Shown piece by piece: positions 1-19,677 of a DNA stretch of 24,841 nt; position 1 is the stretch's first letter, and every line of letters starts with the position of its first letter. The translations under genes were made by a program, and so were the position numbers. Below the pieces are notes generated by a model, which was not told where the DNA came from, did no database searches, and saw only the letters and a program-made list of their open reading frames with translations. The DNA comes from Flavitalea sp. GTDB lineage: Bacteria; Bacteroidota; Bacteroidia; Chitinophagales; Chitinophagaceae. The stretch lies in the NCBI GenBank assembly GCA_039934275.1, contig JBDTMM010000001.1:1-24841 (forward strand). Reading direction: 5' to 3'.

Positions 1-118
1 GTTTTGAGTTAAAAGGATATGGGCGATGCAGTTAAAGGATAGTGTTTTCGGTTAATGGTTGCCGTTAGGTTTTAATAATTATGGCATTGATTTTTAATTT
101 CTCAAACCTCACACTAGA

Positions 119-172
119 TATTTCTGTTAGGCGCTTTATATTTCTTCCTTCATGAATCGCTTTTTCAGTCTT
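119..172 (-). pseudogene. N-terminal remnant of an XRE/Cro-type HTH regulator
   Basis: Minus-strand reading KTEKAIHEGRNIKRLTEI resembles the N-terminus I recall for Bacteroidota XRE regulators (..IHxGRNIKRFRE..). The frame drifts into AT-rich sequence and stops at 65-67. No in-frame ATG; the match is short. Confidence 0.45.
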
Positions 173-511
173 GCCATTGATTTAAGTACAGGAGAGTATG
201 TATGGACAGTTCCCGCAGGCAATGACGAAAAACTTCAGAAAAAAGGCGACCTTCCTACAGGTTCAAGTGGTTCTCCCGGACCGATAGTTACGGCAGGAGG
301 ATTGGTTTTTCTTGGAGGCTCAAGCGATAAAAAGCTATCGGCCTACGATAAAGACAGCGGAAAATTACTTTGGGAATATGCCTTGCCATCCTTTGCGTCT
401 TCGTCACCGTCTTCGTTTATGAGCAATGGAAAACAGTATATCGCTGTATCGGTTGGCGGCGACAAGGAATCATACGCCGGGCGCATAATGGTGTTTGCAT
501 TGCCAGATTAA
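173..511 (+). pseudogene. C-terminal remnant (~112 codons) of a PQQ-dependent quinoprotein glucose dehydrogenase-like enzyme
   Basis: AIDLSTGEYVW, GPIVTAGGLVF, GKLLWEYALP and NGKQYIAV..VFALP are the last PQQ beta-propeller blades of the GDH family. In-frame TAG at 128-130 upstream, so the large N-terminal part is absent. The ORF-track ATG at 152 lies outside the homologous part. Confidence 0.8.
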
Positions 512-528
512 ACGATTAAAATATAACG

Positions 529-1458
529 ATGAAAAATCAGCGCAACTATTTAACTTCGGCGTCCATTTTGTTTTCGTATTGGTGCGCTGTCATTCCGCTT
601 ACTTCCTGCGCCCAGGAACCCAAAGAGAAGGAATTATATAAGGCCTCTATTTTCACTCCGGTAAATAGTTTTTTAAGTGATGTGGAAGGTCCCGCGGTGG
701 ATAAAGAAGGTAATCTTTATGCGGTAAATTTCGAAAAGAAGGGAACAATTGGAAAAATTTCAGATTCGGGTACTACGGTTATTTATGTAACCTTGCCCGA
801 AGGAAGTGTTGGTAACGGGATAAGATTTGACAGTCATGGTAACATGTTCATTGCTGATTACACCGGTCACAATGTTATAAAAGTAGAACCAAAATCAAAA
901 GTGATTTCTGTTCTGGCACACGAACCGACAATGCATCAGCCCAATGACCTGGCAATTGACAGTAAGGATAGAATATATGCAAGTGACCCTGACTTCAAAA
1001 ACAATACAGGAAGAATCTGGAGAGTTGACCCAGATGGAAAAGTAACATTGCTCGACAGCACAAAAGACGGATCGGCAAATGGGCTTGAAGTTAGTCCTGA
1101 TGAAAAAATACTATATGTAAACGGTGGAAAAACTATTTGGGCGTATGATTTAAAAGACGGGAAGATCGGTAACCAGAGGGTATTAATAAAATTTTCTGAT
1201 TTTGGCGTGGATGGAATGCGATGTGACGTCAAAGGAAATATTTACATCGCAAGATTTGGAAAAGGGGTGGTGGCAAAAATATCTCCCCACGGGCAGATAT
1301 TAAAAGAAGTTGTTTTATCAGGAAAACAATCGACCAATGTTGCATTTGGTGGTACAGACGGGCGCACTGTTTTTGTAACGCTGATGGACAAGGGAAACCT
1401 TGAAACCTTCAGGGTTGATGAGCCGGGGCGTGAATGGGAAATGCAACATGGTAAATAA
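529..1458 (+). CDS. SMP-30/gluconolactonase family lactonase, predicted lipoprotein or exported
   Basis: EGPAVD, PNDLAIDSKDRIYASDP, ANGLEVSPDEKILYV and DGMRCDVKGNIY motifs; hydrophobic N-terminus ending LTSC (possible lipobox). Confidence 0.9.
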   Translation: MKNQRNYLTSASILFSYWCAVIPLTSCAQEPKEKELYKASIFTPVNSFLSDVEGPAVDKEGNLYAVNFEKKGTIGKISDSGTTVIYVTLPEGSVGNGIRFDSHGNMFIADYTGHNVIKVEPKSKVISVLAHEPTMHQPNDLAIDSKDRIYASDPDFKNNTGRIWRVDPDGKVTLLDSTKDGSANGLEVSPDEKILYVNGGKTIWAYDLKDGKIGNQRVLIKFSDFGVDGMRCDVKGNIYIARFGKGVVAKISPHGQILKEVVLSGKQSTNVAFGGTDGRTVFVTLMDKGNLETFRVDEPGREWEMQHGK

Positions 1459-1560
1459 TTCAATCAGCGTTTTATCGGGGTCCTGAATAGAAAAGAATTA
1501 CTTTCAGGGGCTATTTAATATATAGAAATCAGTTTTTTATTCATCATTAAAATAAAGTTT

Positions 1561-2040
1561 ATGCAACAACAACGCAGATCCGCTTTAAAGAAATTACTGG
1601 CATCCGTAGCAGGCCTTACTGGTTTTGGCGTAGCAGCTAAAGCAATGGGTGGCGCAACTTCTTCTTCACCAAAATTGGAAAAGGAAGTGCAGAGCATCGT
1701 TTACGACCAGGAAGTTCCTTTGTACTCAGGTTCTACGAAATTCAACGGGCTTATTTTCATATCTGGTAAAGGCGCACATTTTCCCGGGGATATCACTTCA
1801 CATACCGATCGCGTGTTAAAAGATTTGGAAGAAGAATTGAAAAAAGCAGGTTCCTCTATGGATAAGGTGCTGAAGGTAAATGTTTACCTGAATGACATCG
1901 CAGATTTCAAAGGAATGAACGAAGTGTACAAGGGAAAGTTCGGTAAAAATCCTCCGGTACGTACAACTGTTGCCGTTTCAAAAGGTGGTTTACCCGGAGA
2001 TTCACTTGTAGAAATCGATTGTATAGCAATGGCTAATTAG
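1561..2040 (+). CDS. RidA/YjgF/YER057c/UK114 family imine deaminase with twin-arginine (Tat) signal peptide
   Basis: LKVNVYL, PPVRTTV (conserved Arg) and LVEIDC motifs; N-terminus QQRRSALKKLLASVAGLTGFGVAAKA. Confidence 0.92.
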   Translation: MQQQRRSALKKLLASVAGLTGFGVAAKAMGGATSSSPKLEKEVQSIVYDQEVPLYSGSTKFNGLIFISGKGAHFPGDITSHTDRVLKDLEEELKKAGSSMDKVLKVNVYLNDIADFKGMNEVYKGKFGKNPPVRTTVAVSKGGLPGDSLVEIDCIAMAN

Positions 2041-2086
2041 TCGCTGCACGGTATCATAATCCTATCATTCATCAAACAACTCATCA

Positions 2087-3301
2087 ATGAAACGCAGAGA
2101 CATTTTAAAAGGATTTTCCCTTTTACCGATTAGCGGGGTCATTGGCGGTAGTGTTCTTCCATTAACATCGAAGGCATCTCCATCACCAAAGCTTACACGC
2201 AACGTCTTCAAGGAACTGGGCGTCCGTACATTTATTAATGCGGCGGGTACCTACACTTTTATGACGGGTTGTTTGATGCATGATTATGTTCTGGATACCA
2301 TCAAAGAAACCGCTACCGAATTTTGCATGCTTGACGACCTACAGGATAAGGTGGGGGAAAAAATCGCTAAGATGACACATGCAGAAGCGGCAGTGGTTAC
2401 CTGCGGTGCATTCTCTGCCCTAACATTGGGAACGGCGGGTATTATGACCGGTACCGATGACAAAAAAGTAAGACAGCTACCTAATGTTGAAGGGACAGAT
2501 ATCAAAAATGAAGTAATTGTTCAGAAAGCACATGTCATTGATTACAACCATGCATTTACCAATACGGGTTGTAAAATTATCGTGGTGGAAACTGCCGAGG
2601 ACGTTGACAAAGCAGTGAACGATAAAACGGTAATGATGCACTTTCTCAATATCCAGGCAGATAAGGGCCAGATCAAGCACGAAGAATGGGTGGCGCTTGG
2701 AAAGAAACACAATATTCCTACCTCGATTGATATTGCAGCAGATGTACCTCCCGTATCGAATCTTTGGAAGTTTAACGATATGGGATTTGATTATGTTACC
2801 TTATCGGGCGGTAAGGCCCTTCGCGGACCGCAGAGTGCAGGAATACTGATGGGTAAAAAAGAAGTGATCGCCGGCGCAAGGATGCATATGTCTCCGCGCG
2901 GGGCGAATGTTGGACGTGGAATGAAAGTGAACAAAGAAGAGATCCTTGGTATGTACGTGGCGCTGGAACATTTTTTAAGCTACGACCACGACGCAGAATT
3001 CAAGAGATGGGAAAAGGGAATCGCATTAATTGAAGCCGCAGCAAAAAGCGTAAAGGGTGCAAAAACAAAAGTATACGTTCCCGAACTCGGTAATATTACT
3101 CCAACACTTGAACTTACATGGGACAAACCTGGATTAAAAGCAAAAGATATCCAGGAAAAACTGCGTAATGGAAGCCCATCCATTGAAGTAATCAGTAAAG
3201 ACGAAAACAGTATCACTATTACCGTTTGGGTGATGAAACCCGGCGATGAAAAGATCGTTGCCAAAAGATTGAAGGAGGACCTTACCACTCTGCTGGCCTA
3301 A
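2087..3301 (+). CDS. SelA-like / DgaE-like (D-glucosaminate ammonia-lyase-like) fold-type I PLP enzyme with Tat signal peptide
   Basis: INAAGTYT, DIAAD, SGGKALRGPQSAG (PLP lysine) and GRGMKVNKEEI motifs; MKRRDILKGFSLLP Tat motif. At ~400 aa it lacks the features of true SelA, and no selB/selC/selD is nearby. Confidence 0.88.
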   Translation: MKRRDILKGFSLLPISGVIGGSVLPLTSKASPSPKLTRNVFKELGVRTFINAAGTYTFMTGCLMHDYVLDTIKETATEFCMLDDLQDKVGEKIAKMTHAEAAVVTCGAFSALTLGTAGIMTGTDDKKVRQLPNVEGTDIKNEVIVQKAHVIDYNHAFTNTGCKIIVVETAEDVDKAVNDKTVMMHFLNIQADKGQIKHEEWVALGKKHNIPTSIDIAADVPPVSNLWKFNDMGFDYVTLSGGKALRGPQSAGILMGKKEVIAGARMHMSPRGANVGRGMKVNKEEILGMYVALEHFLSYDHDAEFKRWEKGIALIEAAAKSVKGAKTKVYVPELGNITPTLELTWDKPGLKAKDIQEKLRNGSPSIEVISKDENSITITVWVMKPGDEKIVAKRLKEDLTTLLA

Positions 3302-3370
3302 ACAATTTTGATGTTGTACTATATAATCAATCATTGACCCGGTTTCGGGGTCTGTAATAATTGTATTGAA

Positions 3371-5173
3371 GTGGCTGAACGATTGCTTTTTAAAAATCCC
3401 CTCGGAATTTTATTTTTTGGTATTGTTACTTTTATGATCGTGTTCGTAGCTTGTAAATCAAAACAGGCCGACAATACAGCAACCGGATGGACCGCGCCGG
3501 AAGAAGCGAAGCAACTGATCAACCCCTTGCAGAATCTGCAGGTGGCGCAGGAAAAGGGTAATGAACTTTATCAGAACTACTGTATGCTGTGCCACGGTGC
3601 CACCGGTTTAGGGGATGGTGCCGCAGGAAATGCAGGCGGGCAGAAACCCGCCAATTTCCACGACGACCGTTTTAATAAACAAAGCCAGGGAGAAATATTC
3701 TGGAAGATCACCAATGGAAAGGGAATTATGCCTTCGTTCAAAGCGGTATTAACCGAAGAGCAGCGTTGGCAACTGGTTTCCTACATCCGCATACTTGATA
3801 CCACCACAAACAACAGCGAGCGCCAGCCGCCAAAATCATTAAGACCCGATATCACCGTATCACATGTAATGAAAATAAGTCCGCTTGCTGTGCGCCTTCT
3901 GCAAAATCCGGTAAGCGGCGACCTGTACTATACCACCTTTGATGGCGATATATTCCATTTAAAAAATTACAACGGTGCAGAACCATCTTACGAAAAAATA
4001 TTAACCGTAAAAGAACACGGTATTTCCAGGGTGCAGGGTGCCATCTTTTTAAACAATACCCTTTTCCTCTGCGGCAATGTAGACACCGCTAATAAAACAA
4101 TTACGAGAGGAAGAATGGTGAGATACGCCATTGGCGGAAAAGATTCTTCCAAAATATCCGTAGTATTTAATACCTCTTCTTACGGATCCAATAAAACGAT
4201 CTACGATCACGGGTGGAACGCACTAGCGCTTAGCCCCGATGGCAAATACATTTTTGTAAACAGCGGCGCGCGTACTGATCATGGTGAGGTGCAGGATAAC
4301 GGCGGATTGTTTCCAAATGCAAGAGACAATGCATTTACCTCGAAGATATTCAGGTTCCCTGTTGACGCTACTGACCTGATGCTAACAGACAGCCTTGCAA
4401 GGTTAAAGGCCGATGGATATTTGTATGCCGAAGGTATTCGCAATGCGTATGATATGGCCTTTGATGCCGATGGTAATTTATTTGCAGTAGTAAACTCTTC
4501 GGATTACGATAGTCCTGAAGACATGTTCTGGATAAGGCAGGGACATCATTATGGATTTCCCTGGGTGCTGGGGGGAATTGAAAATCCGCAACAATACGCC
4601 GACTGGGTTCCCGATCCTGAAACCGATAAATTCATTAATAAATTTTCTCATTCCTGGGAGGTAAAATACTTCCATACCGATCTAACATTCCCAAGGATAC
4701 CGGCAGGGGTTAAATTCTCTGCCGGCGTTCAGAATATGGGCCCCGATGCAAACGAGTACCGCGGTCATTCCGGGCACATACAGGATGGTGATACCACAGG
4801 TGTTGCGGTAAGTACATTCACTCCGCATTGTTCGCCACTGGGATTATTCTTTGATATTAGCCACACTTTACCCGGCGACCTTAAGGGTACTGGCTTCGTG
4901 ATACGTTATAGCAACGGAATACACGGAGGAATGATGGGCGCTTTTACAAAACAAGGCTCAGACATGCTACATTTGGAAATGACCTATGATAAAATCCTGG
5001 ATAATTACAGCATGAGAACGACAAGGATCGTTGACGGCTTTGTTGAGCCATCCGATGCTGTGCTAATCGGTAACAACGCTTATGTTATTGAATACGGCGG
5101 TACTGGTGGTAATATCTGGAAGGTCAGTTTTCCAAAAGAAGTGAAAGAGCCGAAGTTTGAGAAAAAGAAATAA
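3371..5173 (+). CDS. Lipoprotein fusing a c-type cytochrome domain to a glucose/sorbosone (PQQ) dehydrogenase-like beta-propeller
   Basis: GTG start, lipobox FVAC, CMLCH heme motif and GKGIMP axial Met; then GIRNAYDMAFD, GHHYGFPW and PHCSPLGLFF GSDH-type motifs. Confidence 0.82.
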   Translation: MAERLLFKNPLGILFFGIVTFMIVFVACKSKQADNTATGWTAPEEAKQLINPLQNLQVAQEKGNELYQNYCMLCHGATGLGDGAAGNAGGQKPANFHDDRFNKQSQGEIFWKITNGKGIMPSFKAVLTEEQRWQLVSYIRILDTTTNNSERQPPKSLRPDITVSHVMKISPLAVRLLQNPVSGDLYYTTFDGDIFHLKNYNGAEPSYEKILTVKEHGISRVQGAIFLNNTLFLCGNVDTANKTITRGRMVRYAIGGKDSSKISVVFNTSSYGSNKTIYDHGWNALALSPDGKYIFVNSGARTDHGEVQDNGGLFPNARDNAFTSKIFRFPVDATDLMLTDSLARLKADGYLYAEGIRNAYDMAFDADGNLFAVVNSSDYDSPEDMFWIRQGHHYGFPWVLGGIENPQQYADWVPDPETDKFINKFSHSWEVKYFHTDLTFPRIPAGVKFSAGVQNMGPDANEYRGHSGHIQDGDTTGVAVSTFTPHCSPLGLFFDISHTLPGDLKGTGFVIRYSNGIHGGMMGAFTKQGSDMLHLEMTYDKILDNYSMRTTRIVDGFVEPSDAVLIGNNAYVIEYGGTGGNIWKVSFPKEVKEPKFEKKK

Positions 5174-5190
5174 CACTTTAAAAAAGGATA

Positions 5191-6465
5191 ATGAAATTAT
5201 TATTCGTGTTCATGGTTTCCCTGTTGTGCACCCGTATGGTAAATGCACAAACATATTCCATCGTTATTAAAGACGGCAACGTTATTGACCCGAAAAATAA
5301 TATTGTCGACGTGATGGATGTAGCTATCAATGATGGTAAAATTGTAAAGGTTGCAAAAAACATAGACGCCAAAGGTGCAGCGCAGGTAATAGATGCAAAA
5401 GGTTTGTATGTTACACCAGGGTTAATCGATATACATACACATGATTTTTTTGGAACCGAACCCGATCACTACCTCAGCAATGGTTTGGTGGCTGTAATGC
5501 CCGATGGATTTACCTTCCGTGTGGGTGTAACCACGGTTGTAGATGCGGGTGGATCAGGATGGAAAAGCTTTGCATTATTTAAAAAGAACATCATCAACAA
5601 TTCTCAAACGAGGGTATTGGCGATGCTGAATGTTGTGGGAGAAGGAATGCGCGGCGGAATGTACGAACAGAATACAAAAGACATGAACCCCAAAATGATC
5701 GCTATGGTTGCGAAAGCAAATCGTGATGTCATTGTTGGGATAAAAGTGGCGCATTTTGAAGGACATGAGTGGACGGCGGTTGACAGCGCAGTAGTAGCGG
5801 GCAACATGGCAAACATCCCGGTGATGGTTGATTTTGGTAGCGCAAACGCTCCATTGCCTATCGAAGAATTATTTATGAAACATTTGCGTCCGGGTGATAT
5901 TTTTACACATTGCTACGGAAACCTAAAGGGCCGCGAAGCGATAGTTGATGAAACAACCAATACGGTAAAACCATTTGTATTCGAAGCAAGAAAAAGGGGA
6001 TTGTTTTTTGATGTGGGTTATGGTGGTATCAGCTTCAGGTTTTCCCAGGCTATACCGGCACTTAAACAAGGATTTATTCCTACCTCCATCAGTACCGACC
6101 TTCATGAAGAAAGTACAAACGGCGCCATGAAGGATCAGTTAACCTGTATGTCTAAGTTTCTTGCAATGGGTATGGACCTTCCTGCAGTAATAAAGGCGAG
6201 CACCATGAACCCTGCATTGGAAATAAAAAGAGAAGACCTTGGAAATTTATCTGTAGGTTCCGGGGCAGATGTTGCAATACTTAACCTAAGACATGGTAAA
6301 TTTGGATATTTCGATTACACTGGGTACAAGATCAGCTATGATAAAAAACTGGAATGTGAAATGACTATTAGGGCCGGAAGAATAGTATATGACGTAAATG
6401 GAATCGCTAACCCGGTTATGGTTCCGGGAAAACCAGCAAAAAATGAAAAACCATCGATACACTAA
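5191..6465 (+). CDS. Amidohydrolase/deacetylase-family metallohydrolase (dihydroorotase-like, EF_0837 type) with Sec signal peptide
   Basis: PGLIDIHTH, GVTTVVDAG, GIKVAH (carboxylated Lys), THCY and ISTDLH motifs; signal peptide ending VNA. Confidence 0.9.
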   Translation: MKLLFVFMVSLLCTRMVNAQTYSIVIKDGNVIDPKNNIVDVMDVAINDGKIVKVAKNIDAKGAAQVIDAKGLYVTPGLIDIHTHDFFGTEPDHYLSNGLVAVMPDGFTFRVGVTTVVDAGGSGWKSFALFKKNIINNSQTRVLAMLNVVGEGMRGGMYEQNTKDMNPKMIAMVAKANRDVIVGIKVAHFEGHEWTAVDSAVVAGNMANIPVMVDFGSANAPLPIEELFMKHLRPGDIFTHCYGNLKGREAIVDETTNTVKPFVFEARKRGLFFDVGYGGISFRFSQAIPALKQGFIPTSISTDLHEESTNGAMKDQLTCMSKFLAMGMDLPAVIKASTMNPALEIKREDLGNLSVGSGADVAILNLRHGKFGYFDYTGYKISYDKKLECEMTIRAGRIVYDVNGIANPVMVPGKPAKNEKPSIH

Positions 6466-6488
6466 GAAATTAAACAACGATAACGATT

Positions 6489-7634
6489 ATGCCTGTCAAT
6501 GAAAATTTAAAAAAGAATACGCTTTCAAAAGTATTGCTTGGGTTATCTGTTGCCTCGCTTGCAACGGCGCTGATTATGACCGCATTGGGATCGATACCAT
6601 TATCGGGTCCCTTTTACATTGCATTTTTTTTATTGCTTGCGATCGCGTTTCGCGGTTTCGATGCCGTAAAGGGATTTAGCTATACGGTCATCATTTTTGC
6701 AGCAGTTACAACTGCATTGTTTTACCCCAATTATTTTAAAGAAATCAATGGTGTAAAACTCACCATCCTTATTACTCCACTGATTCAGATAATTATGTTC
6801 GGGATGGGAACGTCCATGAGCTTTGAAGATTTTGTTGGAGTAGTGAAAATGCCAAAGGGTGTTTTAATTGGGGTGGGCAGCCACTTTTTAATTATGCCAC
6901 TTATAGGGTACACCCTCGCAAATTTGAGTGGCTTTCCTCCTGAAATAGCAGCAGGTATTATTCTGATAGGATGTTCGCCAAACGGTATGGCATCGAATGT
7001 AATTTCTTATCTGGCGAAAGCGAACCTTGCCCTTTCTGTAACCATTACAGCGATATCAACCATGCTCGCACCTTTTCTAACTCCATTGCTGATGAAATTG
7101 CTCGCGGGTGCATTCATCGAAATAAAGGTAATGGACATGATGTTCGAAATTTTTAAAATGGTGATCATACCCATTTTTGCGGGGCTCACCTTTAATAAAT
7201 TATTTCACGGAAAGGCTGCGTGGTTAGATAAAGCCATGCCTATCGTTTCTATGGCAAGTATTGCATTGATCATTGTGGTGATCACTGCTGCGGGCCGTGA
7301 CAGTTTATTAACTATCGGCCCTGCACTGGTCCTACTGGTACTGATTCATAATTTATCCGGTTACACACTCGGGTACTGGAGCGGAAGATTATTTAAGATG
7401 AGCGAACGCGATTGCCGAACCATTGCCATTGAAGTGGGTATGCAGAATGGCGGACTTGCTTCGGGCCTTGCAAAGGCAATGGGCAAAATTGCCACCGTTG
7501 GTTTGGCGCCTGCCATATTCGGACCGCTGATGAATGTTACCGGCTCCATCCTCGCAAGTTATTGGCACAGGAAACCACCGGCTGATGAAGAAAATGGTAG
7601 TAAATTAGTAATGCCCGTAGTAGTGGCAGATTAA
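6489..7634 (+). CDS. Bile acid:sodium symporter (BASS/SBF) family transporter
   Basis: IMFGMG, IMPLIGY, GCSPNGMASNV and IEVGMQNGGLA motifs; multiple hydrophobic helices. Confidence 0.92.
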   Translation: MPVNENLKKNTLSKVLLGLSVASLATALIMTALGSIPLSGPFYIAFFLLLAIAFRGFDAVKGFSYTVIIFAAVTTALFYPNYFKEINGVKLTILITPLIQIIMFGMGTSMSFEDFVGVVKMPKGVLIGVGSHFLIMPLIGYTLANLSGFPPEIAAGIILIGCSPNGMASNVISYLAKANLALSVTITAISTMLAPFLTPLLMKLLAGAFIEIKVMDMMFEIFKMVIIPIFAGLTFNKLFHGKAAWLDKAMPIVSMASIALIIVVITAAGRDSLLTIGPALVLLVLIHNLSGYTLGYWSGRLFKMSERDCRTIAIEVGMQNGGLASGLAKAMGKIATVGLAPAIFGPLMNVTGSILASYWHRKPPADEENGSKLVMPVVVAD

Positions 7635-7651
7635 AATATAAATTTATTTTT

Positions 7652-8086
7652 ATGAAGAAGATGTTTTTTTTATTAGCAGTATTGATAGTAACGATTAGCA
7701 GTGCGAATGCGCAGTCTAAAGATTCAGCAGCAGTAGCTGATCAGGTTGCGAAACTGAATGCCGGGATTTTAAAAGAAGATACGGCTGCATTAAAATTACT
7801 TACAGAAAAGAGCCTGAGCTTTGGTCATTCCAGTGGTAGAATAGAGAGCCAGCAGGTTTTCGTTTCCAACGTTTCACAGGGTGCGATCCATTTTAAGACA
7901 CTCGATATTACGGACCAAACGATCACTGTAAGCGGCGAAAATGCCATTGTTCGCAACAGCCTGCACGGTGACATTACCAATAACGGAGCCCCGGGTGAGA
8001 TCAATTTAAAAGTCCTGATGGTTTGGCACAAAGACAAAAAAGGAACCTGGAGGTTGCTCGCAAGACAGGGTTTTAAAACCACCTAG
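7652..8086 (+). CDS. Nuclear transport factor 2-like (DUF4440-type) exported protein
   Basis: Signal peptide ANA; L..LSFGHSSG.IE and LMVWHK..GTWRLLARQ NTF2-like pattern. Confidence 0.8.
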   Translation: MKKMFFLLAVLIVTISSANAQSKDSAAVADQVAKLNAGILKEDTAALKLLTEKSLSFGHSSGRIESQQVFVSNVSQGAIHFKTLDITDQTITVSGENAIVRNSLHGDITNNGAPGEINLKVLMVWHKDKKGTWRLLARQGFKTT

Positions 8087-8138
8087 TATTATCATAAAAG
8101 AAGGTTTAAAAAAAAATTAAATAAAATTTTTACGGGTT

Positions 8139-9077
8139 ATGTATAAGAATAAACTCTTTAGTTGTATTTGCTTTTTACTGGTGGTTTTTGGTGCAGGGCA
8201 GTTATCGGCGCAACAGATCGCGTTACCGAAGGATCAAATGCTCGCATTGACGGCCTTGTGGAAGGGAGAGCGCTTTCCTGATGGAAGACCAAAAGTTTCG
8301 GATAGCCTTATAAAGCGCCTGCCTAATATTTCCCTGGAAGATGCGTGGCAGTTTTTGTCGAACCAGGGTTACATGAACCAGTTTGATGCTGGATGGAAAA
8401 TTATTCATGACGATAAAACGCTTGCGGGCCGTGTGGTGACGGCGCAGTATATGCCTTCGCGCCCTGATGTTGACAGCATCATAAAAGCAAAGGGTAAAGC
8501 CGAAGGAAGAATCGGGGCGCCAAACTCATGGCCCATCGATGTATTAAAAATTAATGATGTTTATGTTGCGGATGGTTTTTCAAAGATCATCAACGGTACG
8601 CTGATAGGAGACAATCTTGGAAATTCTATTTATGCAAAAACAAAAACAGGTGTGGTATTCGATGCTGGTGTGCGCGATTTGCAGGGCCTCGAAGCTATTG
8701 ATGGTTTTGTGGGATTTGTAAGGGGAATGGACCCTTCGTTTCTTACTAATGTAACCATGACGGGGATAAACGTTCCGATCCGAATAGGCAGGGCTATTGT
8801 TTTGCCTGGCGACCTGGTGTTAGGTAAAAAAGAGGGTGTAGTGTTTATACCTGCGCACCTTGCAGAAAAAACGATTATTTATTGTGAGTTCATCGGGTTG
8901 AAAGATGAATTTGGTCATATGCGCCTGAAGGAAGGAAAATACACTCCGGGCCAGGTAGATTCTGCCTGGACAGAAGAAATAAAAGCTGACTTCCTCAACT
9001 GGGTTAAGAGCAACCCTTCAAAAATGCCGATGAGTAAAAAGGAACTGGACGACTTTCTCAAGGACAGAACCTGGTAA
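8139..9077 (+). CDS. RraA-like / HMG-aldolase-like protein with signal peptide
   Basis: LAGRVVTAQYMP, GDNLG, GVVFDAGVRDL and VLPGDLVLG motifs; signal peptide ending LSA. Confidence 0.85.
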   Translation: MYKNKLFSCICFLLVVFGAGQLSAQQIALPKDQMLALTALWKGERFPDGRPKVSDSLIKRLPNISLEDAWQFLSNQGYMNQFDAGWKIIHDDKTLAGRVVTAQYMPSRPDVDSIIKAKGKAEGRIGAPNSWPIDVLKINDVYVADGFSKIINGTLIGDNLGNSIYAKTKTGVVFDAGVRDLQGLEAIDGFVGFVRGMDPSFLTNVTMTGINVPIRIGRAIVLPGDLVLGKKEGVVFIPAHLAEKTIIYCEFIGLKDEFGHMRLKEGKYTPGQVDSAWTEEIKADFLNWVKSNPSKMPMSKKELDDFLKDRTW

Positions 9078-9256
9078 AAGCTAGTTGTAGAATATATTGT
9101 AGTAAAGGGAGGAGGCCAGATGCCTAAGCTTCGATTGGAAAAAAATGCCAGTACGTAAAAAATACGAACCGGCAGTGAAATGTTCTGGGAATATAATGAT
9201 GACAAGAAAGGATATCTCTTATCTGTGTTGCGAAAGAATTTAAGTACTAAGGTAGG

Positions 9257-9757
9257 TTACTGAACTACTTTGAATTCCGAATATACTTGGTCCTTGTTGT
9301 TGTTCCAGTATGCCCAAACTACAAGATTTGTATCGCTAAAGGACACGAGCCTATAGGTAAGGATCTGGTATTGATGACCAACAAAGTCAATACGAACGCC
9401 ATCTTTATCAGCTGCAACATACCAGTTGCGTTTTAAAACTGCAGAGTCATTGTTTGCAATTTTTATAGAGTCTTGGTTAATGATAACATTTGATGAAGTA
9501 AATTGATACCTGTCGTCAACCAACCATGGACTAACATATTGGTTAAGATCAGTTTCTGCTTTTACAACAGCGTCTGTATCTATGTAATCAATCGGAGTGA
9601 GTGAATAATAATTTGCCAGGTGATATTCGTGTTTAAGCATAATATCTGCAACTTGTATTGCCTTTGCCCTGTCCTCTGCGCTTATGGGGTCGTGTGTTGA
9701 TTCCTTTTTGCACGAATAAATTGCCAGTACGGTACAAACAAATAAAAGCCATTTCAT
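9257..9757 (-). CDS. Hypothetical lipoprotein (possibly lipocalin-like beta fold)
   Basis: MKWLLFVCTVLAIYSC lipobox, 166 aa uninterrupted ORF; no family recognised. Confidence 0.7.
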   Translation of the reverse strand: MKWLLFVCTVLAIYSCKKESTHDPISAEDRAKAIQVADIMLKHEYHLANYYSLTPIDYIDTDAVVKAETDLNQYVSPWLVDDRYQFTSSNVIINQDSIKIANNDSAVLKRNWYVAADKDGVRIDFVGHQYQILTYRLVSFSDTNLVVWAYWNNNKDQVYSEFKVVQ

Positions 9758-13533: not shown

Positions 13534-14814
13534 ATGAGATATCTGATCAGCCTTTTATTCTTCTCCCTGTTTGTGAATGCTAATCTTAAATTAATTGCGC
13601 AGGAACAGGAGCAATTGAACCTGCCAGGTGACAATCTCAATTTATATGCGGTACTTAAATTGTTCCAGGAATCAAAAACGCTGGAAAGTTTTGAGAAATC
13701 GCTCAATGAAGAAAATAATAAAATAAACAATCTCGACCTCAACGGTGACGGTAAAACTGATTACATTTTTATTGATGACAGCCTGGTGAACAACGTTCAT
13801 AACATTTTGCTCCGCATTGCGGTTAACGCTACTGAAACGCAGAGTGTAGCCGTTATAGCGGTTGAAAAAGACAATAGCGGCCAGGTAAATATGCAACTCA
13901 TCGGGGATGAGGATCTTTATGGAAAAGATTATATCGTAGAGCCCGATTCCGAGGGGCTTGCCCAAACACAAAACCCTGGTTATTCAGGTAACGCATCGCA
14001 GGCGCCCCTGCCACAAGATAATGTGCAGGTTGATGCCTCAGCTGCTTACTACCCGGTTAATTTCTGGCCAGTGATACAATATATATATGTGCCCACATAT
14101 TCCGCGTGGCGCTCACCATGGTTCTGGAACTATTACCCGAGTTACTGGACGCCATGGCGCCCATTTTACTGGCACACTTACTACGCCTACCAATATCACT
14201 GGAACTATTATTATTCCGCTCACTACCGCCAGGTAAATGTTTACCGCATACCCGGATGGCGACAGAAATACTACAATACACCAGGGTTCAGGTCGAGATC
14301 GGTTGTTGTGAAGACGAGATACCAGCAGGGAAATTACAGGCAAACCTATTCACGGCCTCATTTCGCGAACCGCGGTACAGAATTGTTCAGAAGAGACCAT
14401 CCAAATGCTCCATCAGTAAATACAAAACCTCCACTGTTTGATAAGAATGGGCGGCCTGTGGTTATTAACTCTGGAAGGCCGGTTACCAATGCGGGCACCC
14501 GTCCAATCGCCAGGCCAATAGTCACAAATCCCAGGACAAGGCCTGTAAAGAATCCTGGTACAAGGCCGGCAAATCCATTAACACGTCCTGTAGTCAATCC
14601 GGGCACCCGTCCATCAAACAGGCCAATCGCGCATCCGGTTACAAGACCGGTTTCACCTTCAGTGAACAGGCCAGCGCAAAGACCATCGGTGTCTCAACCC
14701 AGTAAAAGACCAATTAATAGCCCGGGTGCCAGGCCAGCCATTTCCCGGCACCAAACCGAGCGACCCACACCTCAGACACAGGCTTCTGCTGTTAGGGAGC
14801 GCGACGACCATTAA
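13534..14814 (+). CDS. Exported conserved Bacteroidota hypothetical protein with EF-hand-like DLNGDG loop, W/Y/P-rich segment and Arg-Pro repeat tail
   Basis: Signal peptide; FEKSLN..INNLDLNGDGKTDYI; YYPSYWTPWRP; low-complexity C-terminus. Confidence 0.8.
   Translation: MRYLISLLFFSLFVNANLKLIAQEQEQLNLPGDNLNLYAVLKLFQESKTLESFEKSLNEENNKINNLDLNGDGKTDYIFIDDSLVNNVHNILLRIAVNATETQSVAVIAVEKDNSGQVNMQLIGDEDLYGKDYIVEPDSEGLAQTQNPGYSGNASQAPLPQDNVQVDASAAYYPVNFWPVIQYIYVPTYSAWRSPWFWNYYPSYWTPWRPFYWHTYYAYQYHWNYYYSAHYRQVNVYRIPGWRQKYYNTPGFRSRSVVVKTRYQQGNYRQTYSRPHFANRGTELFRRDHPNAPSVNTKPPLFDKNGRPVVINSGRPVTNAGTRPIARPIVTNPRTRPVKNPGTRPANPLTRPVVNPGTRPSNRPIAHPVTRPVSPSVNRPAQRPSVSQPSKRPINSPGARPAISRHQTERPTPQTQASAVRERDDH
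14452..14772 (+). repeat. Imperfect intragenic peptide repeats, 15 RP-initiated units (e.g. RPVVNPGT, RPVKNPGT)
   Basis: Counted by eye in the translation; mostly 4-10 aa spacing, degenerate at DNA level (GGGCACCCGTCCA occurs twice). Confidence 0.8.
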
Positions 14815-15004
14815 TGCCTCGTTCAAAAAGTTAATTACAAGGCGGGCATCTTTGTGCCCATACAGAAATATTTTTTTTCTTTCACTTCCCTATAACAGTT
14901 TCGCGGTACATGATAAGTAGGGTCATTCAATAATGACCTTCTACCCCTTCATCACGAATTATAAAAACTGCTAATTGATCTTAAAACAAAACCAAAACAA
15001 CGTT

Positions 15005-18000
15005 ATGGAAAACGCTCCTGTTTGTAACTACATGGCGCATTGGGTACGCCGGAACATCTTTCACCTCACAGGAATATTTTTATTGACCATCAGTCTTAAC
15101 GTGTCTGCAAAAGGCGATAAAAATCTACGTATTGAAAACGGAAATGCGGATTTTAATGTCCCATTACCTGTTCCCATTACTGGTACCGTAACTGGTCCGA
15201 ATGGAGCACCGGTTGCAGGTGTCAATGTAATTATCAAGGGAACTACGAGGGGAACCGCCACCAGCGAAAGCGGAAAATTTACCATTGATGCGGATGCCGG
15301 TCAGGTACTGGTGATCAGTTCAGTGGGGTTTGCTACGCAGGAAGTGACCATTGGTTCCAATAACACTATCAATGTTCAATTGGTTGGTGAAAACCAATCG
15401 CTTAACGAAGTAATCGTTACGGCGCTGGGTATCAGAAAATCTGTAAAGGGATTAACCTATGCTGCGCAAAGCATCAAGGGTGACAAACTGAACAAGGCAA
15501 AGGAAACTAATGTAATAAACTCCCTTCAGGGTAAAGTTGCCGGTGTTACCATCACCAAAAATGCAACAGGCCCAGGTTCCGATTCGAAGGTGATTATCCG
15601 CGGAAACCGTTCTATTACCAATAGCAGTGAACCATTATATGTAGTAGATGGTGTGCCTTTAAATGGCAATGTCGGTATGCTTAGCTCGGATGATATTGAA
15701 AGCATGACCGTTCTTAAAGGTGCATCTGCTGCAGCATTGTATGGTAGCCAGGGGCAGAATGGTGCCATCATTATCACTACTAAAAGAGGTAAAGCCGGTG
15801 AAACAAGTGTAAACTATGTTGGCGGCATTACGCTGGACCAGGCAGCAGTTTTACCCGATCTTCAATTTCAATACGGACAGGGAGATGCAGGCGGTTACAT
15901 CGCATCATCACAACATAGCTGGGGACCAAAAATCACTGGCCAGGAAGTAGAATTGTGGAACGGTGATAAAGTGGCTATGCAAGGTCAGCCCGACAGGTTG
16001 AAAGACTTTTTCAGAAAAGCTACCACTATTAATAATACAGTGATCGTACAAGGTGGTAATGATAAAATGCAAACTTTCTTTTCTTACGGAAACACCACAG
16101 CGCAGGGTATCCTGCGAAACAATGACCTCGTAAGGCATAATCTAGACCTTAAAATAACCAACCAGATCAATTCAAAACTTTCCTTCTTTTCCAAGCTGAG
16201 CTACATCTATGAAAAAGTAGACAACCGCGTTGAGCCAGGTGATGCAGGAACATACACGCTTCCGTCTATTTACCGTGCACCGGTAACCATTCCGATCAGT
16301 GAAATGCAAAAATTTAACTACTACGACGAAGCAGGTACGGAAAAACAGAGTTACTGGAGCCCGGGTTCATCAGTACAGGTTAATCCTTACTGGGCCCTGA
16401 ATCGTGTATTGTATTTTCAGAAACAGGAACGTTTAATTGGATTGATATCTGCGAAATATGAATTTACCGACTGGTTAAATCTTCAGGTTCGCGGAAGCAT
16501 TGACAAACGCATTACTAATACTGACCATAAGGTTTATGATGACAGCTATTTTAGCCAGGTTGGGTCTGACTACGAACGGGGCGAAAATAAGCTTCAGGGA
16601 AGTAATATAGATGCGTTGTTGTCATTCAATCATGCACTTTCAAAAGATTTCAACCTGTCAGGAAACATTGGTGCATCCGTGCAGGAAAGCAAGTACGAAT
16701 CAAATTCAGAACAGGCAAATGGGTTAAATAAAGCGAATTTCTTTTTCCTGGCCAATGCAAAGGCTCCGTTTGCGACAAACTCTTTTGGACAATCCCCGCA
16801 GGTTCAATCATTATATGCCACTGCAACAATTTCCTATAAGGAATACTTATACTTTGATGTAACAGCAAGAAACGACTGGTCATCAGCCTTGCCTAAAGCA
16901 AACCGCTCATACTTCTACCCATCTTTCGGGTTGTCTGCAATTGTATCTGAAATGACCAAAATGCCAGACTGGGTAACTTATGGAAAAGTGAGGATATCTT
17001 CTGCCGGTTCAGGTTTTGGTGGCACAGAATATCTTAACCGTAACTATTTCCGTGTTGCCTCAGCAGGTATAATATCAACACCAGATATTATATCCTTAGG
17101 AAACTATAAACCGGAATTCACCAAAGCATTTGAAACCGGTTTAGACTGGCGCTTTTTCAATAACAGGGTTGGATTTGAGTTCACCTATTATAATACAGAA
17201 ACAAAAAACCAGCTGTTGTTAATTGGTATTCCACTCGCGACTTTATTCAACGAGAAATATATAAATGCGGGATTGATACGGAACAGGGGTATTGAAGTTG
17301 CTGCAGATTATTCGCCTATAAAAACGAAAAACTTTACCTGGACCTTGGCAGGTAATTTTTCAAGAAATAAAAACAGGGTTCAGAAACTCACCCAAGAGAT
17401 TAAATCTGTGGTGATCGGCGCAGGGGATGGAGTTTACCTGATTAAAGTTGATGAAGGCAGCAGTTTTGGAGATGTATATGTTAAGGGATGGCAGAAAGAT
17501 GCCCAGGGAAGACACCTTGTTGACGCAGACGGCAGCCCAACTTTAACTGAGGGATTAAATTCATTTGTTGGAAATTACAATCCGGACTGGATGGGTGGAT
17601 TGTCAAGTACATTCACTTTCAAAAATTTCGCTTTGAGTTTCCTGATCGATCATCGCCAGGGTGGAGTAGTGATATCAGGTACACAGGCATTGATAGATGC
17701 AGATGGGCATTCAAAAGCCTCGTTGCTTGGTCGTGAAACAGGAGGAATTTTGCTTGATGCGGTAATGGCAGATGGTAGCAAGAATACGCAGCGCATTGAA
17801 TCACAGAAATACTTTGGTTTGATCGGTGGGCGTTATCCAATTGCGGGATTTTACAGTTATTCTGCAACCAATACGCGTCTCAGAGAACTTGTTTTTACGT
17901 ATACTATACCTACAAAGGCATTGGGAAAAACAAAGTTTATCAAGCGTGCTGAAGTTTCTGTAGTCGGAAGGAACCTTTTCTTCTTTGATCGCTCAGCGCC

Positions 18001-18103
18001 TATCGATCCTGAAATTACAAGGGGAGCCGATGGCGGTGGTTTGGAATATGCAGCGTTGCCTTCGACTCGTAACTATGGTTTAAATCTTAATTTATCATTC
18101 TGA
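15005..18103 (+). CDS. susC: SusC/RagA family TonB-dependent receptor
   Basis: ITGTVTG..GVNVIIKGT N-domain, plug DIESMTVLKGASAAALYG..NGAIIITTK, C-terminal YGLNLNLSF. ATG 15005 is preferred over TTG 14975. Confidence 0.96.
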   Translation: MENAPVCNYMAHWVRRNIFHLTGIFLLTISLNVSAKGDKNLRIENGNADFNVPLPVPITGTVTGPNGAPVAGVNVIIKGTTRGTATSESGKFTIDADAGQVLVISSVGFATQEVTIGSNNTINVQLVGENQSLNEVIVTALGIRKSVKGLTYAAQSIKGDKLNKAKETNVINSLQGKVAGVTITKNATGPGSDSKVIIRGNRSITNSSEPLYVVDGVPLNGNVGMLSSDDIESMTVLKGASAAALYGSQGQNGAIIITTKRGKAGETSVNYVGGITLDQAAVLPDLQFQYGQGDAGGYIASSQHSWGPKITGQEVELWNGDKVAMQGQPDRLKDFFRKATTINNTVIVQGGNDKMQTFFSYGNTTAQGILRNNDLVRHNLDLKITNQINSKLSFFSKLSYIYEKVDNRVEPGDAGTYTLPSIYRAPVTIPISEMQKFNYYDEAGTEKQSYWSPGSSVQVNPYWALNRVLYFQKQERLIGLISAKYEFTDWLNLQVRGSIDKRITNTDHKVYDDSYFSQVGSDYERGENKLQGSNIDALLSFNHALSKDFNLSGNIGASVQESKYESNSEQANGLNKANFFFLANAKAPFATNSFGQSPQVQSLYATATISYKEYLYFDVTARNDWSSALPKANRSYFYPSFGLSAIVSEMTKMPDWVTYGKVRISSAGSGFGGTEYLNRNYFRVASAGIISTPDIISLGNYKPEFTKAFETGLDWRFFNNRVGFEFTYYNTETKNQLLLIGIPLATLFNEKYINAGLIRNRGIEVAADYSPIKTKNFTWTLAGNFSRNKNRVQKLTQEIKSVVIGAGDGVYLIKVDEGSSFGDVYVKGWQKDAQGRHLVDADGSPTLTEGLNSFVGNYNPDWMGGLSSTFTFKNFALSFLIDHRQGGVVISGTQALIDADGHSKASLLGRETGGILLDAVMADGSKNTQRIESQKYFGLIGGRYPIAGFYSYSATNTRLRELVFTYTIPTKALGKTKFIKRAEVSVVGRNLFFFDRSAPIDPEITRGADGGGLEYAALPSTRNYGLNLNLSF

Positions 18104-18117
18104 TAAACTTAAATAAA

Positions 18118-19677
18118 ATGAATTACAAGAAATTATTACCAAAACGAATACTGGTGTGCGTTATGCTACTGTCGGTATTTATCTTATCAGGCTGTACAAA
18201 AAAATTCGACGAAATAAATACCGATCCTACCAGACTTCCTGTTTTAATAAACGCGGATATCAATGGGTTATTCACCAGTGCAGAATACATGGCCATGTAC
18301 TCCGGGAACGGCTCTGCAGAGTATCAGTATGCGCAGGGTTTTGTTGCTGATCTTTATTGCCAGTATTCAGCCATTACAGAAACATTCGATCCCACGGACC
18401 GTTACAACATCGTTCAGGAATGGCTGCAGGAACAATGGTTCGGTACATTCAGGGCTATGGCCCCTTTGTATAATATTATTAAGGTAACCACTGGTGATGA
18501 CAAGAAAGCGATGAACGCAATTGCACGTATCTGGAAAGTTTGGACTATCCATCGCGCAACGGATTATTATGGGCCGATGCCTTATTTCAGTATCGGAATC
18601 GATAGCACTGTTGTTCCATACGACAAACAGGAAGACATCTACCATGATCTTTTTAAAGAACTGACTGAAGCAACTGCGGTTCTCGAGGCAAATGTAGACC
18701 AGCTGTCATTTGGTGGTGCAGATTTAATTTTTGGTGGAGATAATTCAAAATGGCTGAAATTTGCAAACACACTTCGATTAAGGCTTGCCATGCGCATTTC
18801 GAATGTTGAACCTGCGCTTGCAAAAACTGAAGCGGAAGCTGCAGTAGCGAATGGTGTAATGGACGATGTTTCCGATGATGCATACCTTGCTTCTTCTCCA
18901 GTTAACTATAATGGATTCAACCGCCAGTCTGGATGGAATGAATTTAGGATGAGTGCCGCAATGCAAAGTATCCTGGTTGGTTACAGTGACCCAAGGTTAC
19001 CAAAATTTTGGCAACCGGCGGTAAATACGGGAGTTTACAAAGGGGTAAGAAACGGTATGGATGTTGGAGAAATAGTTGACGCAGCAAACGTAGCGGATAA
19101 CAACTCTCAGCCAAGTCTCCCATTGTTACCCGAAAACCTTGGATCAACACCATCAACAGTAATGCACAGTGCCGAGGCTTATTTCCTTCGTGCGGAAGGT
19201 GTGCTGAACGGATGGGACATGGGTGGAGGAACAGCCGAATCACTTTATAACCAGGGAATTGAAATGTCGATGAAAACATGGGGCATCAACGATAATACAG
19301 TGATTAATAACTATGTCAACAGTAGCGCGGTTCCCATTGCACTTAATGACATTTATAACACACCTGCCCTTACCGACATCCCTGTTAAATTCGGAACGGA
19401 TCCCGAAAAACAACGTGAACAGATCATTACACAAAAATGGATCTCTTTGTTCCCTGAAGGTCATGAGGCATGGGCTGAACATCGCAGGTCGGGCTATCCA
19501 AAATTATATCCATTATTACATTCAGATAACCCCGATGCACCGGTTGGCACTGAAATCAAACGCGTACCATTCCTAGACTATGACAGGGATAGAAATGGAG
19601 CAGCAGTTGATGCGGCAGAAGCTTTACTTGGGGGTCCGGATAAAATATCTACACGTCTTTGGTGGGATGTAAACTAA
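18118..19677 (+). CDS. susD: SusD/RagB family nutrient-binding lipoprotein
   Basis: Lipobox LSGC, INTDP, KWLKFANTLRLRLAMR, QKWISLFPEGHEAWAE.RRSGYP and LWWD; 14 bp after susC. Confidence 0.95.
   Translation: MNYKKLLPKRILVCVMLLSVFILSGCTKKFDEINTDPTRLPVLINADINGLFTSAEYMAMYSGNGSAEYQYAQGFVADLYCQYSAITETFDPTDRYNIVQEWLQEQWFGTFRAMAPLYNIIKVTTGDDKKAMNAIARIWKVWTIHRATDYYGPMPYFSIGIDSTVVPYDKQEDIYHDLFKELTEATAVLEANVDQLSFGGADLIFGGDNSKWLKFANTLRLRLAMRISNVEPALAKTEAEAAVANGVMDDVSDDAYLASSPVNYNGFNRQSGWNEFRMSAAMQSILVGYSDPRLPKFWQPAVNTGVYKGVRNGMDVGEIVDAANVADNNSQPSLPLLPENLGSTPSTVMHSAEAYFLRAEGVLNGWDMGGGTAESLYNQGIEMSMKTWGINDNTVINNYVNSSAVPIALNDIYNTPALTDIPVKFGTDPEKQREQIITQKWISLFPEGHEAWAEHRRSGYPKLYPLLHSDNPDAPVGTEIKRVPFLDYDRDRNGAAVDAAEALLGGPDKISTRLWWDVN

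Follow-up and report, generated by a model that had tools for sequence, protein, structure and literature searches.

The DNA analyzed here is a stretch of 24,841 nucleotides from Flavitalea sp. (assembly GCA_039934275.1, contig JBDTMM010000001.1), hereafter called the window. Its source genome is a metagenome-assembled genome (MAG) that is 74% complete and contains 2020 open reading frames (ORFs). Nine ORFs occupy the first 9 kb of the window, all on one strand and separated by gaps of 17 to 102 nucleotides. They encode, in order, a C-terminal piece of a pyrroloquinoline quinone (PQQ) dehydrogenase, an SMP-30 lactonase, a RidA-family protein, a SelA/DgaE-like pyridoxal 5'-phosphate (PLP) enzyme, a cytochrome c-GSDH fusion, an amidohydrolase/deacetylase, a BASS symporter, a DUF4440 protein, and an RraA-like protein. 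A sequence-only reading of this DNA had proposed that the adjacent RidA and PLP enzyme form a dedicated lyase/imine-deaminase pair that leaves the cytoplasm by twin-arginine translocation (Tat), and these two proteins are the subject of our analysis. Their coordinates and those of their neighbors are collected in Table 1.

The motifs RRSALKK and KRRDILK, each followed by a hydrophobic stretch, are present at the N termini of RidA and of the PLP enzyme, as the sequence-only reading had stated. RidA begins with M-Q-Q-Q-R5-R6-S-A-L-K-K and the PLP enzyme with M-K-R3-R4-D-I-L-K. In both proteins the motif is followed by an uncharged, mildly hydrophobic stretch, and the leader ends in a small-x-small cleavage site (A-K-A28 before M in RidA, S-K-A30 before S in the PLP enzyme). 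The neighboring leaders, examined by eye, are short, strongly hydrophobic, and of the Sec or lipobox type, in agreement with the sequence-only reading. They end in L-T-S-C for the SMP-30 protein, F-V-A-C for the cytochrome c-GSDH fusion, V-N-A before Q for the amidohydrolase, A-N-A before Q for the DUF4440 protein, and L-S-A before Q for the RraA-like protein. In an AlphaFold2 (AF2) model of the PLP enzyme, the confident fold begins at about residue 38 and does not include the first 35 residues, and residues 11 to 32 have a predicted local distance difference test (pLDDT) score below 50. The genome encodes TatC (198 bits) and a TatA/B/E protein (48.7 bits), both above cut-off. A loose Tat-like filter was passed by 28 of the 2020 ORFs, including the RidA/PLP enzyme pair and three further SelA-like paralogues.

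Table 1. Features of the RidA/PLP enzyme cluster in the window, and paralogues of the PLP enzyme elsewhere in the same genome
Feature	Coordinates	Strand	Basis and remarks
RidA-family imine/enamine deaminase precursor, 159 aa	1561..2040	+	PF01042 E=4e-22; nearest solved structures RidA/YjgF
Predicted Tat signal peptide of RidA, aa 1-28, cleavage after A-K-A	1561..1644	+	read in sequence
Twin-arginine codons R5-R6 of RidA	1573..1578	+	sequence, homologue conservation
Catalytic Arg134 codon (P-P-V-R) of RidA	1960..1962	+	aligns with conserved Arg of 2DYY and 2CSL
SelA/DgaE-like fold-type I PLP enzyme precursor, 404 aa, putative ammonia-lyase	2087..3301	+	PF03841
Predicted Tat signal peptide of PLP enzyme, aa 1-30, cleavage after S-K-A	2087..2176	+	sequence, homologue conservation
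Twin-arginine codons R3-R4 of PLP enzyme	2093..2098	+	sequence, alignment
K243 codon (S-G-G-K), predicted PLP-binding lysine	2813..2815	+	invariant in alignment; aligns with S-G-A-K lysine of DGL 7LC0
Sec-exported amidohydrolase/deacetylase (predicted leader), conserved third partner	5191..6465	+	NF006689 444 bits, cut-off 371; 63/77 loci
SMP-30/gluconolactonase-like lipoprotein, accessory context	529..1458	+	PF08450; 18/77 loci
Cytochrome c fused to GSDH-like propeller dehydrogenase, lipoprotein, accessory context	3371..5173	+	PF13442 and weak PF07995; 23/77 loci
BASS/PanS-like sodium symporter, candidate keto-acid product importer	6489..7634	+	PF01758; NF047939 240 bits, below cut-off; 15/77 loci
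RraA/HMG-aldolase-like protein, Sec-type leader, accessory context	8139..9077	+	PF03737; 16/77 loci
SelA-like paralogues, loci L081-L084	C9:929-2557; C93:5924-7567; C210:4150-4977; C159:3583-4671		

The paired arginines are strongly conserved. Among the best database homologues, RR is kept in 119 of 120 PLP enzymes and in 116 of 120 RidAs, and the sole exception among the former and three of the four among the latter look like mis-called starts. Representatives of clusters built at 50% identity delineate a broad, N-terminally extended clade of the PLP enzyme, with S-R-R-K-L-L-K and T-R-R-D-F-L-K among its classic motifs; the leader extension is missing from cytoplasmic relatives, which start at about query residue 39. 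In an alignment of 24 sequences reaching down to 33% identity, R3, R4, and the predicted PLP lysine K243 are invariant, while the rest of the leader drifts.

To compare the pair with its neighbors, we used 77 related loci, retrieved with a 7-sequence alignment of the PLP enzyme and searched by tblastn with the window proteins. A Tat motif was found in 104 of 111 PLP enzymes and 68 of 70 RidAs from these loci, versus 2 of 85 amidohydrolases and 0 to 1 member of each other exported neighbor family. The median peak hydropathy over 10 residues was 1.74 and 1.88 for the leaders of the pair, versus 2.2 to 2.9 for Sec neighbors of the same loci. A basic residue in the c-region of a signal is typical of Sec avoidance. 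By a rough and loose measure, such a residue lies 14 to 32 amino acids after RR in 116/116 RidAs and 107/119 PLP enzymes, versus 6/77 amidohydrolases. Together, these observations make Tat export of both proteins highly likely, and the proposal of an exported pair that uses Tat while its neighbors use Sec stands as a prediction.

The RidA protein scores 78.9 bits against PF01042 (cut-off, 27.3) and 77.6 bits against TIGR00004, below the cut-off of 106.25. Its sequence places it in the Rid family and retains the catalytic Arg, and these scores do not establish it as an archetypal RidA. The sequence-only reading had recognized this Arg in the motif PPVRTTV; indeed, R134 falls opposite the Arg that is conserved among RidA proteins of solved structure, and Y55 and E151 also align with their counterparts in the RidA-family chains 2DYY and 2CSL. 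We take the catalytic Arg of the family to be Arg105 in Salmonella RidA numbering. A six-frame search of the 74%-complete assembly with PF01042 recovered one Rid-family gene, the exported window copy, and hence no cytoplasmic RidA in the assembled part of the genome. In some related loci (L037:12549-13100 and L010:7471-8004), we observed a second Rid-family protein of ∼180 amino acids (PF14588/PF01042) that carries a Sec-type leader, so the Rid fold can apparently use either export route. The earlier argument that Tat suits folded oligomers is therefore incomplete for RidA, whose fold alone does not explain the choice of Tat. Rapid trimerization in the cytoplasm would be a guess at the reason.

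The PLP enzyme is above the PF03841 cut-off and far below those of two more specific models (154.2 bits versus 385.3 for TIGR01437, 134.1 bits versus 600 for NF047797). A phmmer comparison placed it nearest to DGL (also called DgaE), the Salmonella ammonia-lyase that acts on D-glucosaminate 6-phosphate (7LC0, E = 2e-26), and to Cap15 (E = 5e-24). Its AF2 model (pLDDT 91) was matched by Foldseek to 7LC0 with a template modeling (TM) score of 0.85, to Cap15 (8T7J) with 0.88, and to SelA with ∼0.6. A function in selenium metabolism like that of SelA was rejected, the match being weak and limited to the PLP core.

In DGL, the pair His162-His163 is strictly conserved and His163 is the C-3 proton donor; it protonates the enamine so that an imine leaves, and the H163A variant releases an unprotonated intermediate (PMC9529869). 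The same study proposed that Arg301, Arg332, and Arg346 form a phosphate-binding cluster and that Arg226 binds the carboxylate. In the phmmer alignment to 7LC0, H162 stands opposite Q190 and H163 opposite a gap of the window enzyme, and the exported clade lacks the His pair in this loop. R301 stands opposite T340, R226 opposite K257, a conservative exchange, and R332 and R346 lie beyond the aligned region. We thus rejected the assignment of the window protein as a DgaE equivalog, given the scores below cut-off and the absence of the His162/His163 pair. The term lyase, taken from the sequence-only reading and retained below for convenience, holds at the level of the SelA/DgaE-like family; it is a family-level guess as to the reaction, since the enzyme is no DgaE equivalog and its nearest folds include that of the O2-dependent Cap15. 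The absence of His163 offers a plausible reason for a dedicated RidA. Likewise, a periplasmic enzyme is unlikely to meet a phosphorylated substrate, with which the missing phosphate contact (Arg301) would fit.

Across the 77 loci, which come from Chitinophagaceae, Dyadobacter, Larkinella, Spirosoma, Sphingobacteriaceae, and others, a RidA match was present in 64 and an amidohydrolase match in 63. Matches to the other window proteins were fewer (cytochrome c-GSDH fusion, 23; SMP-30, 18; RraA, 16; BASS, 15). Gene order is shuffled among the loci, and a single strand is nearly always kept. In an unrelated metagenome, a relative with 38% identity lies side by side with a lactonase and a Tat RidA and itself has a Tat leader. 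Conserved RR, selective use of Tat, the presence of TatA and TatC, and this linkage thus favor the dedicated exported pair of the sequence-only reading, except that the unit is larger than a pair. Because the amidohydrolase is as tightly linked as RidA, the functional unit is, on this genomic evidence, a trio of a Sec amidohydrolase/deacetylase, a Tat PLP enzyme, and a Tat RidA, set within a larger exported oxidative cluster. Unbiased clustering of the locus ORFs identified as further recurrent neighbors a second GSDH-cytochrome c protein (43 loci), SusC (24), SusD (24), FecR-type anti-sigma and extracytoplasmic function (ECF) sigma factors, a small cytochrome c, 7-bladed lactonases, and CBM9-like proteins.

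Our analysis shows that the signals are present, how conserved and selective they are, how the genes are linked, and to which families the proteins belong; the export, chemistry, and substrate of the module are inferred as follows. RidA and the PLP enzyme would each be made with a cleavable twin-arginine signal peptide and exported in the folded state by TatABC, with the cofactor bound to the PLP enzyme beforehand and RidA probably assembled into its trimer. In the periplasm, the amidohydrolase would first strip the N-acyl group from an N-acyl-2-amino acid. The likeliest such substrate may be an N-acetyl-hexosaminic acid such as N-acetylglucosaminic acid (GlcNAc1A), supplied by the neighboring periplasmic sugar dehydrogenases and lactonases. 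The PLP enzyme would then β-eliminate water to give an enamine/imine, and RidA would hydrolyze the imine, releasing ammonia together with a 2-keto-3-deoxy acid, which could be imported by a BASS or major facilitator superfamily (MFS) carrier or cleaved by the RraA-like aldolase. Such a periplasmic route, in which an N-acyl amino sugar would be oxidized to its aldonic acid before deacylation, elimination, and hydrolysis, appears the most economical because lactonase and dehydrogenase neighbors, a carrier, and an RraA/HMG-aldolase-like protein are encoded together. Of its parts, a deaminating lyase acting with imine hydrolysis by RidA is likely, and an amino-sugar acid as substrate falls slightly short of an even chance. 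A Tat-exported periplasmic module of deacylation, β-elimination, and imine hydrolysis for N-acyl amino (sugar) acids is, taken whole, our best explanation, and one that we hold to be reasonably probable.

Several observations count against this explanation, some of them at the level of export. The N termini might be ordinary Sec signals or uncleaved anchors in which RR is incidental, with both proteins still facing the periplasm. The Pfam TAT_signal and NCBIfam TIGR01409 hidden Markov models (HMMs) gave no match at E ≤ 10 on the 50-residue N termini of the two proteins; these are short models, and HMMER filters discard weak matches, so the case for Tat is built on motif conservation and on the internal Sec control. 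In addition, the residue after RR-x is A in RidA and I in the lyase, a departure from the F of the consensus S/T-R-R-x-F-L-K, and the Sec-signal Rid paralogues of related loci mean that Tat is not obligatory for the Rid fold. However, RR is invariant at 33% identity in a leader that otherwise drifts and is nearly absent from the Sec-type neighbors of the same loci. The h-regions of the pair are clearly less hydrophobic, a basic residue occupies the c-region, and the Tat machinery is present, making ordinary Sec signals or anchors very unlikely. Still less can be said for mis-called start codons, with real starts downstream (for example, at Met29 of RidA) and cytoplasmic proteins. A Met does directly follow the predicted RidA cleavage site and is common there in homologues, and a few database entries are annotated with shorter N termini. 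Yet the leader is conserved as protein, in frame, across hundreds of homologues and in distant relatives, and every soluble neighbor in the cluster is also exported by a predicted leader; we regard mis-called starts as extremely unlikely. Both of these accounts are poorly compatible with the conservation data.

Other observations concern the chemistry and the substrate of proteins accepted to be exported. The PLP enzyme falls well short of the cut-offs for DgaE and TIGR01437 and is without the DGL His pair and Arg301, so it may catalyze a different reaction, and the O2-dependent Cap15 is an equally close fold (TM 0.88 versus 0.85 for DGL). It could thus perform other imine-forming chemistry, for example an O2-dependent oxidative deamination or decarboxylation like Cap15 or a transamination like PtaA, with RidA hydrolyzing the imine, and the oxidizing periplasm and the cytochrome c partners encoded nearby would suit such chemistry. 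Its sequence is nevertheless slightly nearer to DGL than to Cap15, and the deacetylases and lactonases that recur as its partners are what one would expect for a DGL-type substrate, an amino-aldonic acid. RidA is classically tied to PLP dehydratases and lyases (PMC3565831). On balance, we consider this other chemistry quite unlikely. Alternatively, the same module might act on N-acyl-D-amino acids or on free amino acids of the D-Ser/D-Thr type, for example from peptidoglycan or necromass, the sugar-oxidizing neighbors being unrelated passengers. For the amidohydrolase, the family name (amidohydrolase/deacetylase) is a generic one and the relatives with solved structures are uncharacterized, the OngB and OngC proteins described below are related to D-aminoacylases and D-Ser deaminases, with OngC also deaminating D-Ser and D-Thr (PMC9537276), and dehydrogenases and lactonases occur in a minority of loci only. 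The PQQ dehydrogenase at the left end of the window is a C-terminal piece only. No glycoside hydrolase or lytic polysaccharide monooxygenase was among the conserved neighbors in the unbiased clustering, which leaves the link to chitin weak. On the other side, lactonases recur beside lyase/amidohydrolase pairs, including the paralogous loci of the same genome and a distant relative, and a sugar acid is the substrate of the one close relative that has been characterized for the lyase; substrates of the D-amino acid type are thus unlikely.

The module of deacylation, elimination, and imine hydrolysis is best read, by analogy, as an exported counterpart of two cytoplasmic routes. In the Ong route for oxidized chitin of Pseudoalteromonas prydzensis, OngB deacetylates GlcNAc1A and OngC deaminates the resulting glucosaminic acid (GlcN1A) to 2-keto-3-deoxygluconate (KDG), and the deacetylase OngB, the PLP deaminase OngC, and the RidA-family protein OngD are all required for growth on GlcNAc1A (PMC9537276). 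The window and ∼63 to 64 of the 77 loci share this logic of N-deacetylase, PLP deaminase, and RidA. In contrast, the Ong enzymes are described as cytoplasmic and were cloned full length, and OngC is of fold-type III (PMC9537276), whereas the window enzyme is of fold-type I, a distinction drawn from the description. The analogy is therefore a functional one in which no homology is expected, a further point against our explanation. OngB is an amidohydrolase of the D-aminoacylase type, assigned to another subfamily by name only, and a KDG kinase follows in the Ong route, whereas no kinase gene was found in the window cluster. With DgaE, the window enzyme shares the SelA-like fold-type I PLP fold, the conserved PLP lysine, and the predicted β-elimination, here of a 2-amino-2-deoxy-aldonic acid to a 2-keto-3-deoxy acid. 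DgaE differs in being cytoplasmic, without a signal peptide, and in acting on a 6-phosphate made by the phosphotransferase system (PTS). The window enzyme has a Tat leader and ∼23% identity to DgaE, lacks His162/His163 and Arg301, and is linked to RidA and a deacetylase; for the DgaE pathway, PMC9529869 names only the lyase and the aldolase DgaF.

Tat export of PLP enzymes as such is already known. Tat suits a PLP enzyme because the enzyme must fold around its cofactor, and the sequence-only reading was right to invoke cofactor loading, for which there is experimental precedent. In pyoverdine tailoring, PvdN is a Tat-exported periplasmic PLP enzyme that is translocated folded with its cofactor (PMC6206403), and the same is reported for PtaA, as cited in PMC13673990. 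These Pseudomonas enzymes provide a precedent for the export logic but serve the biosynthesis of a siderophore, belong to another subfamily, and catalyze another reaction, with no RidA partner described. Compared with Rid-family deaminases such as Salmonella RidA, the window protein has the same PF01042 domain, catalytic Arg, and aligned Tyr and Glu, and differs by its 28-residue Tat leader and its score below the TIGR00004 cut-off. RidA proteins classically partner PLP dehydratases (PMC3565831). The only extracytoplasmic RidA that we found mentioned is the M-beta subunit of the periplasmic L-amino-acid oxidase (LAAO) of Chlamydomonas, a LAAO/RidA complex cited in PMC5053998. Our literature search on Tat or periplasmic RidA, periplasmic DgaE-like enzymes, and Bacteroidota glucosaminate lyases found nothing on this module and no description of a Tat-exported RidA or of an exported DgaE-like enzyme with RidA.

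Many soil Bacteroidota probably carry out, in the periplasm, a deamination step so far known only from the cell interior. The biology of RidA has so far been framed as guarding cytoplasmic PLP enzymes from intermediates of the 2-aminoacrylate type, and a Tat-exported RidA tied to an exported PLP lyase, if confirmed, would carry this picture into the periplasm. It would also extend the list of Tat cargoes, whose known PLP enzymes are the biosynthetic PvdN and PtaA, to a catabolic PLP lyase and a cofactor-free trimer. The module is compact, with three soluble proteins, and, if real, would represent a widespread uncharacterized route by which soil Bacteroidota could exploit N-acyl amino (sugar) acids without having to take them up, the gain being acetate, ammonia, and a keto acid. 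More tentatively, soil Bacteroidota may possess a complete, kinase-free periplasmic catabolism of oxidized amino sugars, with the enamine/imine step deliberately placed outside the cytoplasm together with its own Tat RidA, on which the lyase would depend through loss of the His163 of DgaE. This extended proposal is more doubtful than probable; if true, the route would be the first case from bacteria in which damage control or catalysis of the RidA type takes place beyond the cytoplasm.

Strict orthologues (E ≤ 1e-100) are patchy, with 4 of 300 other sampled Bacteroidota genomes containing one, yet >530 species genomes in the collection gave a match and metagenomic homologues number in the thousands. 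In the distant relative P0300, the neighbor is a 141-residue exported protein in which BLASTP showed no likeness to RidA. The source genome of the window contains at least three more Tat-bearing SelA-like paralogues, 35 to 37% identical and ∼545 amino acids long; the N terminus of a fourth, on C159, is missing from the recovered sequence. Each paralogue adjoins a Sec-signal amidohydrolase, a 7-bladed lactonase, or both, with no RidA nearby. We found no fused Rid domain in the 545-residue paralogues: their C-terminal extension of ∼140 residues has no Pfam match, and the genome-wide PF01042 search returned only the window copy. A single Larkinella cluster combines two Tat-bearing lyase paralogues (L019:3312-4532 and L019:9998-11215) with one Tat RidA and one amidohydrolase. 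In a Sphingobacterium locus (L036:13048-14316), an MFS transporter replaces the BASS symporter and lies between the amidohydrolase/DUF4440 genes and RidA, which suggests that BASS and MFS proteins may be interchangeable importers of the product.

The shared strand and the gaps of 17 to 102 nucleotides are the only grounds on which we treat the window cluster as a presumptive operon. A promoter and terminator scan of positions 1 to 9600 returned sites no commoner than in shuffled sequence and zero intergenic terminators. Of the PQQ dehydrogenase propeller upstream of the lactonase (152-511), no more than ∼120 C-terminal residues are present, covering profile positions 501-595 of 595; the gene seems to have been cut short and not to continue past the contig end. 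Farther downstream, positions 13534-14814 encode a 426-residue exported protein without a Pfam match; its middle is rich in Tyr and Trp, and degenerate repeats resembling N-P-G-T-R-P follow one another at its C-terminal end. A SusC-like TonB-dependent transporter and a SusD-like lipoprotein (14975-19677) are encoded on the same strand ∼6 kb downstream of the cluster, and in other genera SusC/D immediately flank the lyase cluster.

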